In this document: positions 3,001 to 6,000 of the stretch, one piece after another
How the letters are laid out: every line of letters begins with the position of its first letter
Position numbering within the stretch: the stretch's first letter is position 1
Source: Escherichia coli O157:H7
Lineage (GTDB): Bacteria > Pseudomonadota > Gammaproteobacteria > Enterobacterales > Enterobacteriaceae
NCBI RefSeq assembly: GCF_013167455.1
Contig: NZ_CP038328.1
Strand: one strand, 5' to 3'
DNA: 64,000 nucleotides
Made by a program: the position numbers

Positions 3001-6000
3001 TTTTAACAGTATTTACCTGTAAAATTGAATAATGATGAGCGCCCTAGAAGTATCTATGTACAGAATCAGCAAGCTTCTTCAGGAAACTGGATGGAGCCAG
3101 GCTGAGCTTGCCCGTAGAATTGGTGTGACACAACAAACTGTTCAACAATGGGTCAGCGGTAAGGCTACACCTAAAGCCTCAAGTTTGGATAAACTGGTTG
3201 AGGTTTCAGGGCATCCATTGCATTGGTTTTTATTGCCTCCTGAAGAGTGTGAGCAAATTTTCACCCCTGACACGATGAAAATTGGTCCTCGCCAACGCGA
3301 ACTGCTCCAAGCTTTTAGTGCGTTTCCTGAGGAAGACCAAGAAAAAATGCTTCAAGAAATCAAAGACAAGAAAAAATCAATGGAAGAAACCATTGCTAGG
3401 TGGCTGGCGGCACAAAAAAGCCGCCGGGCGTGACCACAGTACAAGAAGAGGAGTTATGCCATGGGTACAGCCCTTTCTCCGATAGTTTCAGAATTCGAAA
3501 CTACCGAACAAGAAAACAGTTACAACGAATGGTTGCGCACTAAAGTAACGTCAAGCCTTGCAGACACTCGCCCCGCAATTCCACATGACGAGGTAATGGC
3601 TGAAATGGAAAATCTTATTGCTCAAATTGCTGTAACTAACAAGAGCGAGTAATGTTACCCATTTTATGGCTACCGTCTGCTCGCGATGATTTGCGCCAGA
3701 TCATAACTTACATCGCCAAGGAGAACCCACCGGCAGCACGTAGACTAAAAATACGCATTGAAACATCGGTATTACCTCTATCTGAGCATCCGTACTTATA
3801 TCCACCAAGCGAACGGGTTTCTGGATTGAGAGAGATCGTGACCCACCCTAACTACATAATCCTGTACAGAGTAGCTGCTTCAAGCATTGAGATTGTAAGC
3901 GTGACACATTCTCGGCGACAATTTCCCTTCTCTATCTGAGTTGAACAATTTTCATACTCCCTCTTTCGAGGGATTTTTTTGCCCAAAACAACAATTAAAA
4001 ACTGTTGACACAAAAACAGTTTTTAATTGTAGATTACATACACCAACCACCCACCCCGCCCCACAGAACGCCGGGCAATACTTCGAGTTACCAAGCAGTG
4101 GTCAGGGGGTAAGTAGCCAGCCCGAGGCGTATGAACATGACGGCAGGGTTCAACTTTAATAACTATGCAGCAGGTTTTTGTTCCGCTACCCGGCGTTAAG
4201 GGGAAATGAGGTCAACATGGATACTATCGATCTTGGCAACAACGAATCTCTGGTGTACGGCGTGTTTCCCAACCAGGACGGTACATTCACCGCGATGACG
4301 TATACCAAAAGCAAAACGTTTAAAACCGAAAATGGTGCCCGTCGCTGGCTGGAAAGAAACTCAGGTGAGTGATATGGATTTCGACACAATCATGGAAAAG
4401 GCTTACGAAGAATACTTCGAAGGCCTTGCCGAAGGCGAGGAAGCTCTCAGCTTCAGTGAGTTTAAACAGGCGCTTTCCAGTTCGGCAAAATCTAACGACT
4501 AACGGAGTTAAAGATGGAATTTAAAGATTTACTAAAAGAAATCCAGGAAATTGCAGCACATGCACTTCACCAACGTCTGAACGAAGTTGAATTAGAATCT
4601 GCAACGAAGAAATACATTGATAATATGGCTCGTAATGTGCGCGATGCGTTTACCGGATTGTACTCTGTTTCGGTAACAAACAACCAGAATACTGAAGAAA
4701 CTGCAAAGCGGATTGCCTCGGTGATGGGTTTTCATGTCGAGGAAAAGTATTCAAAAAAAGAATTCTGGAAAACTACAAAAAAATTGCAGAGCGAGAACTG
4801 TCATCTCCTGCGGCAATCGCTTCTTTCTATGAGGAAAGTTATTCAGATGACACAGGATTACCGGAACTGCTCTCATTACTTGAAAAATTCGGAATTATCA
4901 TGAAAGGGACTGCGTCGGCGGATTTCACATACTCAATGATGGCTGCTGATGGAGAGCCTTTTCCTCCCGAACTTAAAATAACCCCCGGCAATCATCCGAT
5001 GGTAACAATAAGAGCAATAGAGAATTACTGGTTTAATCCAGTTCAACAATAGTTGGTCTTTGCAATATTTTTAATGGGCCACTACGCCCTTAATCTCGGG
5101 CGGCGTTTAACTCTTTATTCAGTAAATCAGACTGATACTGATTTGGCTTTGTAATGATACTGTCAAGTTTTGATATATGAAATTCAACATGTTCTGGACA
5201 GTTAAAAATGTAATAACCGCCCTTCTCTAAAAAGCCAGAAAGAGCGTTACAGGCAGGGCATGGTTTGTTTGGCATTTTATCCTCCATTAAGGGCTGAATT
5301 AAAAATGGAGACCAACACGCTGCTACGTGTGGTCGTGCGCCGGACACAGATAAGAATCCGGCACTGACAGTTTACTGAAAGGATATATCCCTGAAAAGTC
5401 AGGGCATAACACGAAAGTGCACGGCGAAGTCCTTCTCCCTTAGAGCCGTCGTTAAATTTAATTCGACCGTGCGCTTCCGGTTGTGGCAATCCGCGAAATG
5501 GCGCGGCGGTAAGTATGGCGGGGTTATTCTTTCCCCGTTGAGGACACCGGGTTGTCAGGTTGACCATACGCTTAAGTGACAACCCCGCTGCAACGCCCTC
5601 TGTTATCAATATTCTGGTGACATTTGGCGGTATCAGTTTTACTCCGTAACTGCTCTGCCGCCCTTTTTTAAAAGTGAATTTTGTGATGCGGTGAATGCGG
5701 CTCAGCGCACGCGGAACAGTTAAATCGGTAAAGCGGTCATTTGCTGAGTAACGAGAATGCTCTGTATCCGGCGTTAATTGTTAACTGGTTAACGTCACCT
5801 GGAGGCACCAGGCACCGCATCACAAAATTCATTGTTGAGGACGCGATAATGGAAAAGTTATCATGTAATGCCAGCACGTCTGAACTTCGTTTCGAAATTG
5901 GCGTTATCACTGGAGACAAAACATTTATTGAAGACGCCATTAAGCAGAGAAAACTCGAGCAGGACCTGTTAAATGAAGTATGCATTCCTTCAATGCTGGC

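Follow-up and report, generated by a model that had tools for sequence, protein, structure and literature searches.

A split gene in a prophage early operon of Escherichia coli O157:H7 very probably reflects an A8 to A7 deletion rather than programmed ribosomal frameshifting

Introduction

In Escherichia coli dnaX, an A_AAA_AAG heptamer, a Shine-Dalgarno (SD)-like element and a hairpin accompany a -1 ribosomal frameshift that gives rise to the shorter of two products. Heptamers of this type differ in strength; A_AAA_AAG is far shiftier in E. coli than A_AAA_AAA (PMC5009743), heptamers lacking stimulators reach just 2-10 times a background of 0.055%, and A_AA.A_AA.A is among the motifs above 0.10% (PMC4066793). 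Efficient slippage of RNA polymerase, in turn, is reported to need runs of about 9 A or T (PMC5009743). 'Savior' or compensated indels, as in the G-run of the herpes simplex thymidine kinase gene and in tssM of Citrobacter rodentium, are homopolymer indels within a gene whose full-length product is recoverable through slippage at the same run; in both cases slippage has been measured and the functional need shown, and in tssM the slippage is transcriptional, at a tract of 11 A (PMC4256274). Cryptic and defective prophages carry homopolymer frameshifts in accessory genes, in which an A-tract has changed by one base, orthologues retain the intact frame and the reading frame runs through an out-of-frame tail to the first stop.

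Here, we analysed a gene that appears split between two frames in a 64,000-nucleotide stretch of E. coli O157:H7 (contig NZ_CP038328.1), referred to as the window, in whose coordinates all positions are given. Based on the sequence of the window, it had been proposed that the frames switch at an A_AAA_AAA heptamer at 4751-4760, either because -1 frameshifting is programmed there or because an A8 tract has lost 1 bp.

Results

Organisation of the split gene and its operon

The frame split at 4514-5052 is real. ORF translation bore out the predicted 129-aa ORF, and the parts of the gene, with the sequence elements considered below, are as follows.

4514-4903, plus strand: 129-aa ORF, RefSeq WP_000394511.1, annotated 'hypothetical protein'
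4739-4743, plus strand: SD-like GAGGA (codons GAG GAA), present before run 1 only, at a distance of 9 nt
4753-4759, plus strand: first A7 run (run 1), in-register A_AAA_AAA, tcA-AAA-AAA-gaa
4777-4783, plus strand: second A7 run (run 2), in-register A_AAA_AAA, acA-AAA-AAA-ttg, the true frame break
4783-5052, plus strand: continuation of the ancestral coding sequence, now in the -1 frame, with I91-Q179 of a 179-aa protein and the stop at 5050-5052
4900-5052, plus strand: 50-aa ORF (MKGTASADF...), the final 50 residues of the ancestral protein

A TGA at 4693-4695 closes the -1 frame, which from 4696 onwards meets no stop until that at 5050-5052; its translation reads ...KKRILENYKKIAERELSSPAAIASFYEE...NYWFNPVQQ and, more fully over the open stretch, ...GKVFKKRILENYKKIAERELSSPAAIASFYEE...NYWFNPVQQ. 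In WP_000394511.1 the N-terminal half of the ancestral protein is preserved as residues 1-90 (K90 being codon 4781-4783), while residues 91-129 (LQSENCHLLRQSLLSMRKVIQMTQDYRNCSHYLKNSELS) form a 39-residue out-of-frame tail that ends at the stop at 4901-4903. This zero-frame tail contains LQSENCHLLR, where the -1 frame product contains ELSSPAAIASFYEESYSDDTGLPELLSLLEK. The part stranded in the -1 frame comprises the last 89 codons (4783-5049), and the ATG of the 50-aa ORF overlaps the TGA of the 129-aa ORF (ATGA, 4900-4903).

The in-register A_AAA_AAA of the original prediction, tcA-AAA-AAA-g at 4751-4760, was confirmed as run 1. Both A7 runs, spaced 24 nt apart, are X_XXY_YYZ heptamers in the zero frame and lie inside its overlap with the open -1 frame (4696-4903). 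Any -1 shift within 4696-4900 would enter the C-terminal frame, and a -1 slip at run 1 also reaches it; the exact ancestral protein is recreated only via a shift at 4777-4783 or an extra A there in the mRNA. A7 runs as such are not enriched in the window; the two strands together have 33, where 25.8 +/- 6.9 are expected.

The surrounding genes are those of a prophage early region.

3032-3433: HTH repressor (RefSeq annotation)
3461-3939: relB / relE-parE pair (RefSeq annotation)
4217-4372, plus strand: ydfA-like DUF1391 gene, upstream in the same operon (RefSeq annotation)
4374-4502, plus strand: ydfB, upstream in the same operon (RefSeq annotation)
5090-5275, minus strand: small gene (RefSeq annotation)
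5612-5663, plus strand: DicF small RNA, downstream in the same operon (Rfam, 76.9 bits)
5849-6037, plus strand: dicB (RefSeq annotation)
6034-6225: DUF1482 gene (RefSeq annotation)
6319-8790: exonuclease (RefSeq annotation)
9078-10097: ORF with a tyrosine-recombinase (integrase) translation

With ydfB upstream and dicF and dicB downstream, the split gene thus occupies the ydfC position of a ydfA-ydfB-dicF-dicB operon. YdfC of the K-12 Qin prophage shares this position between ydfB and dicF-dicB; however, BLASTP against K-12 YdfC gave no alignment with E <= 100, so that the gene is not assigned to the YdfC family and represents a non-homologous replacement at that position. A promoter and terminator scan returned nothing relevant, and no tRNA was found adjoining the integrase.

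Comparison with uninterrupted orthologues

With the fused (reconstructed) protein as query, E. coli and Salmonella gave uninterrupted orthologues of 177-186 aa, with 61-91% identity over 98-100% of the reconstructed protein. Across the junction, these read ...KYSKKEFWKTTKKIAERE... in one frame. Their consensus there is EEKYSKK-EFWK(T/I)(T/A)K(K/R)-IAER..., and they keep frame 0 through run 1 and for eight further codons before meeting the -1 text at IAERE. The 129-aa ORF had been described as protein-like only to about 4760, which is thus 24 nt short, and the switch itself, placed by the prediction at the 4751-4760 heptamer, is located by the orthologues at 4777-4783, run 1 being of equal length in intact and broken alleles. 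Likewise, the 'RILENYKK' that had been read as native text is not ancestral, as orthologues have EFWKTTKK-type sequence.

When the DNA of six uninterrupted orthologues was aligned to the window, a single gap appeared in the window, at run 2. The closest orthologues read ACT(A/G)C-AAAAAAAA-TTGCAG at this point, which is A8, where the window has A7. Run lengths were then tabulated by regular expression over all fetched loci. At run 1, intact alleles had A7 or TCG+A6 and the window allele had A7. Uninterrupted orthologues numbered at least ten, and run 2 in these was A8, CAAAAGAA or CAGGGCAA; A8 occurred in the close intact alleles (L002-L007, L018 and L023), and CAAAAGAA or CAGGGCAA in the divergent ones (L008-L011, including Salmonella-type), which therefore have neither a slippery motif nor a frame break there. 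Uninterrupted copies include one of 186 aa in ETEC6334 and one annotated as 193 aa in strain A19. Over the C-terminal part of the six aligned orthologues, variable sites numbered 33, 20 and 56 of 87 at codon positions 1, 2 and 3, respectively. As third positions were the most variable, the -1 frame is genuinely coding after about 4784, in agreement with the prediction that this frame carries the plausible sequence to the stop at 5050-5052.

The same allele was also found in its A8 state. The exact reconstructed 179-aa protein is present in the database (P0159, 100% identity), and a one-substitution variant (P0163) comes from an O157:H7 strain. At the DNA level, an A8 run encodes the exact protein in two loci (L026 and L027) and a one-substitution variant in a third (L028). 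In L027 and L028 the A8 is the sole indel relative to the window over 2.9-3.7 kb, while the remaining differences of L026 are also homopolymer indels. The assembly behind an A6 variant (P0011, L029) shows seven homopolymer deletions within 5 kb. Since the other differences of L026 and L029 from the window are all homopolymer indels, both are probably sequencing errors. Among IMG/VR loci, nine had A7 at run 2 and one had A8. One genome contributed two copies, one intact (L018, A7/A8) and one doubly shortened (L017, A6/A7), and two further database proteins (P0017 and P0018) were shifted at run 1.

Taken with the A8 of the closest orthologues, these rare A8 copies of the same allele indicate that one A was deleted at 4777-4783. 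A homopolymer-indel frameshift is what the comparison yields, with A7 against A8 at this site and a downstream frame that matches the orthologous protein. The deletion in an A8 tract offered as the second option by the original prediction was therefore right in kind, and wrong in place, the affected run being run 2, 24 nt downstream of the proposed one. Orthologue alignment and counting of the A-run, which it had put forward as a check, thus found a continuous frame and A8, at run 2, an outcome that it had itself named as speaking against programming.

The M of HPMVTIR in the window, which is R in six aligned orthologues, was considered as post-frameshift decay and rejected, the same M being present in the A8 copies P0159 and P0163.

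Distribution of the A7 allele

A 91-nt stretch around the two runs is carried by 385 of 5,426 complete E. coli genomes, and 383 of these carriers match the A7/A7 sequence exactly; no exact match to the A8 version of the stretch was found among the 5,426 genomes. One of the two remaining carriers (E105) retains the 129-aa ORF. Hosts of the A7 allele include O157:H7, O121:H19, O103 and others, and E. coli O157:H7 chromosomes match the stretch with 100% identity. The A7 copies are about 100% identical to each other over 539-751 nt and lie in at least two chromosomal contexts, the O121:H19 module being followed by flanking genes unlike those of the window. The exact 129-aa product occurs on at least 1,000 contigs, and 179-aa versions of the allele on a handful. 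As the A7 copies are essentially identical, they point to one recent event spread with the prophage module and not to independent conservation. That the A7 allele is the commonest, unreverted in 383 of 385 complete genomes, is also compatible with an allele functional in its present form; its prevalence is more simply accounted for by the near-identity of the copies and by one clone having been sampled heavily.

Protein family

Searches of Pfam, NCBIfam and PADLOC and a profile search of PDB gave only noise, and PHROGs matches were confined to families of unknown function (phrog_1363, 2151, 9419, 6937 and 33007). An exhaustive search of 1.84 billion cluster representatives returned just 24 clusters, nearly all of them matching over the N-terminal ~60-90 residues. 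In the phage GenBank collection the yield was a single 138-nt match at 73%, and a literature search for 'Ybl81', the sole source name, found no papers. Within the family, a strongly conserved N-terminal module of ~55 residues (MEFKDLP..IQEIAAHTLRQRLNE...DNMARNVRDAFTGLY) is followed by any of several C-terminal parts, unrelated to each other and widely differing in length. AlphaFold2, run with a 19-sequence alignment, gave a mean pLDDT of 51; the N-terminal module is predicted to be helical (pLDDT about 70-80), and the C-terminal half stayed below 50. By these searches the C-terminal part is an orphan. In terms of the family, the break separates the conserved module from the variable C-terminal part, and since the frameshift thus lies after the N-terminal module, some of the function may persist in the 129-aa product.

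Frameshift signals

An SD-like sequence was absent from the 6-17 nt upstream of run 2, where the stretch reads gaattctggaaa. GAGGA is found before run 1, and neither it nor the A7 of run 1 is conserved at the nucleotide level in divergent orthologues. RNA folds of 60-100 nt past either run were no better than those of shuffled sequences (z-scores -0.3 to -0.6), and the downstream hairpin suggested as a stimulator was thus not found. Of what characterises programmed -1 frameshifting, the locus has a heptamer in the overlap of the two frames; the split and motif are not conserved in divergent orthologues and stimulatory elements are lacking, with none at run 2 and only a non-conserved GAGGA at run 1. 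Programmed transcriptional slippage would call for a run of ~9 or more A or T conserved together with the split; the run here is A7 and the split is not conserved. Two observations nevertheless sit uneasily with a deletion and nothing else, namely that the register of the A7 at run 2 lets a -1 slip regenerate the ancestral protein with no residue changed, and that run 1 stands at a dnaX-like 9-nt spacing from the SD-like GAGGA.

Discussion

The gene is very probably split by an ordinary A8 to A7 deletion at 4777-4783 and not by a programmed ribosomal frameshift. One prophage gene for a 179-aa protein would have formed part of an early operon in the order ydfA-like, ydfB, gene, dicF and dicB, presumably under a DicA-like repressor. 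Loss of an A from the A8 tract, leaving A7 at 4777-4783, would have come about by slipped-strand mispairing in replication, and is likely to have happened once and recently and to have been carried into various EHEC-type lineages by a near-identical prophage module. Translation from 4514 would now yield 90 authentic residues and a 39-residue nonsense tail up to the stop at 4901-4903. The 179-aa protein would be restored only by unselected background slippage, either by a ribosomal -1 slip on A_AAA_AAA at one of the two runs or by RNA polymerase adding an A; we estimate that such rescue probably amounts to about 1% or less, of the order of 0.1-1%. Whatever the N-terminal ~55-residue module does may be retained by the 129-aa product; in other family members this module is paired with short C-termini that are unrelated.

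Compared with the described systems, the gene is closest to the homopolymer frameshifts of cryptic and defective prophages, with which it shares a one-base A-tract change, an intact frame in orthologues, an out-of-frame tail to the first stop and its nature as an accessory prophage gene. Unlike the usual cases, the A7 allele is unusually widespread (383 finished genomes, several EHEC serotypes), and RefSeq carries the 129-aa hypothetical protein without a frameshift flag. To dnaX the likeness consists in an in-register lysine-codon heptamer, an SD-like element of run 1 at a dnaX-like distance and, in principle, the possibility of a short and a long product. In contrast to dnaX, however, the motif is A_AAA_AAA, no significant hairpin follows, and the split and its signals are not conserved in orthologues; moreover, where the dnaX shift gives the shorter product, a shift here would give the longer, ancestral one. 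With the compensated indels of thymidine kinase and tssM it has in common a homopolymer indel within a gene and a full-length product recoverable through slippage at the same run. Those two systems have measured slippage and a demonstrated functional need, whereas the split gene has 7 A in place of the A11 of tssM, and nothing indicates rescue at a useful level.

Several other explanations were weighed against a simple deletion. A 'savior indel plus low-level compensatory frameshifting' pattern, or one like that of Citrobacter tssM, would have A7 kept for a fixed ratio of 129-aa product with a little 179-aa product, made through a ribosomal -1 slip at run 2 or run 1 or through transcriptional insertion of an A. 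The two in-register heptamers within the overlap, the exact recreation of the ancestral sequence by a slip at run 2, the GAGGA 9 nt upstream of run 1, the position of the break between the conserved module and the variable part, the exact allele in 383 of 385 carrier complete genomes and the published precedents (PMC5009743, PMC4256274) all fit such leaky recoding. We nevertheless consider it unlikely, as the split and motif are absent from divergent orthologues, downstream structure does not exceed chance, no SD-like sequence precedes run 2, A_AAA_AAA shifts weakly in E. coli and, for slippage of RNA polymerase, a run of 7 A is short; in addition, the A7 copies are one near-identical allele, so their persistence says little about selection. 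Slightly less likely again is the compound proposal that the A7 allele is a maintained recoding device, producing mostly the 129-aa form and, by a -1 slip or an inserted A, a small fixed fraction of the exact 179-aa protein in a ratio that matters for early function upstream of dicF/dicB; on this proposal, the earlier stop might also alter translation-coupled expression of the toxic downstream dicF-dicB. The programmed shift of the original prediction thus found no footing in divergent orthologues or in stimulators at run 2, and its A7 is that of a single near-identical allele. Its specific form, a dnaX-like -1 shift at run 1 (4753-4759) whose 179-aa product would have the junction ...KYSKK-RILENYKK-IAERE..., can appeal to an in-register A_AAA_AAA, a GAGGA 9 nt upstream and a -1 frame open from 4696. 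Orthologues, however, remain in frame 0 across this site, where they have TCG+A6 or likewise A7, so run 1 is not where the frames were joined in evolution; with GAGGA and A7 unconserved at the nucleotide level in divergent orthologues and no significant structure downstream, we regard it as highly improbable.

A contingency locus, in which the two A runs would switch the gene on and off via frequent replication slippage, is little more probable than that shift at run 1. Database alleles shifted at either run (L017, A6/A7; P0017 and P0018, at run 1), the existence of A8, A7 and A6 versions of the same allele and the genome with one intact (L018) and one broken (L017) copy are what phase variation would produce. 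Against this, run lengths are identical in 383 of 385 complete genomes, so that the expected variability is not seen, and the A6 case (L029) and one A8 case (L026) are probably sequencing errors; tracts of 7-8 A are also short for a contingency locus in mismatch-repair-proficient E. coli. An error of sequencing or assembly in the window itself would be in keeping with the proneness of homopolymers to error, visible in L026 and L029, yet it is effectively refuted, since 383 genomes finished independently, and at least 1,000 contigs, have the same A7.

The ordinary deletion that we favour leaves the A7 allele notable only for its fixation across many EHEC genomes and for the lack of an annotation flag. 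If low-level rescue were functional, the gene would be a small new example of a compensated indel, in prophage early operons beside dicF/dicB, although nothing points there. More generally, little can be concluded from a slippery-looking heptamer close to a change of frame, orthologue alignment having shown here that the nearer-looking run was the wrong one. For annotation, the widely annotated EHEC prophage 'hypothetical protein' WP_000394511.1 is a frameshifted remnant of a 179-aa gene, and the 50-aa ORF called downstream of it by some pipelines is the C-terminus of that same gene.

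Conserved and variable parts of the split-gene family

Among the family proteins recovered from database searches (P0022-P0139), the N-terminal stretch of approximately 55 residues, encoded in the window at 4514-4680, was found to be near-invariant. This conserved N-terminal module is joined to several unrelated C-terminal parts, giving total lengths of 69 to 214 aa. The arrangement looks like either an intragenic mosaic or recombination junction, or a constant module carrying variable 'specificity' parts.

The 3' end of the split gene

Within this part of the gene lies a further reading frame.

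4900-5052, 50-aa ORF, corresponding to the final 50 residues of the ancestral protein

The ATG of this ORF and the TGA that terminates the 129-aa ORF overlap, forming ATGA at 4900-4903, and the C-terminal fragment could in principle be expressed via termination-reinitiation. The 50-aa ORF is annotated by some pipelines (P0121), and a near-identical 50-aa product, P0173, is present on 659 contigs.

Other copies of the split gene

IMG genome 648276671 carries two copies of the gene, at position 6191 of locus L017 and position 4277 of locus L018. One copy is intact, with A7 at run 1 and A8 at run 2 (the A-tracts at window 4753-4759 and 4777-4783), and in the other each run is one base shorter (A6 and A7). 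In the E. coli E105 locus (L012), which has the A7 allele, an IS3-family element lies at 1430-2643 inside ydfB, directly upstream of the split gene; the annotation gives this element a real programmed frameshift of its own.

Genomic neighbourhood

The following features were located around the split gene and elsewhere in the window.

410-1612, minus strand, 400-aa ORF with low-complexity QEQEQEQEKEQEQ mid-protein
3461-3939, RelB / RelE-ParE toxin-antitoxin pair, inserted with the DicA-like repressor gene on one side and the ydfA-like gene on the other
5090-5347, minus strand, convergent Cys-rich small ORF (…CPACNALSGF…NCPEH…)
5612-5663, DicF small RNA (Rfam, 76.9 bits), downstream of the split gene in the same operon

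In contrast to the window, K-12 Qin carries nothing at the place of the RelB / RelE-ParE insertion. The Cys-rich ORF, for which NCBIfam gave no match, appears zinc-ribbon-like from its sequence. It is annotated as 61 aa (5090-5275), and in orthologous loci there is an 80-aa version that shares 20-44 nt with the 3' end of the split gene. Immediately after DicF, a match to STnc100 at 5677-5826 was sub-threshold, with 33.6 bits where the gathering score is 47.
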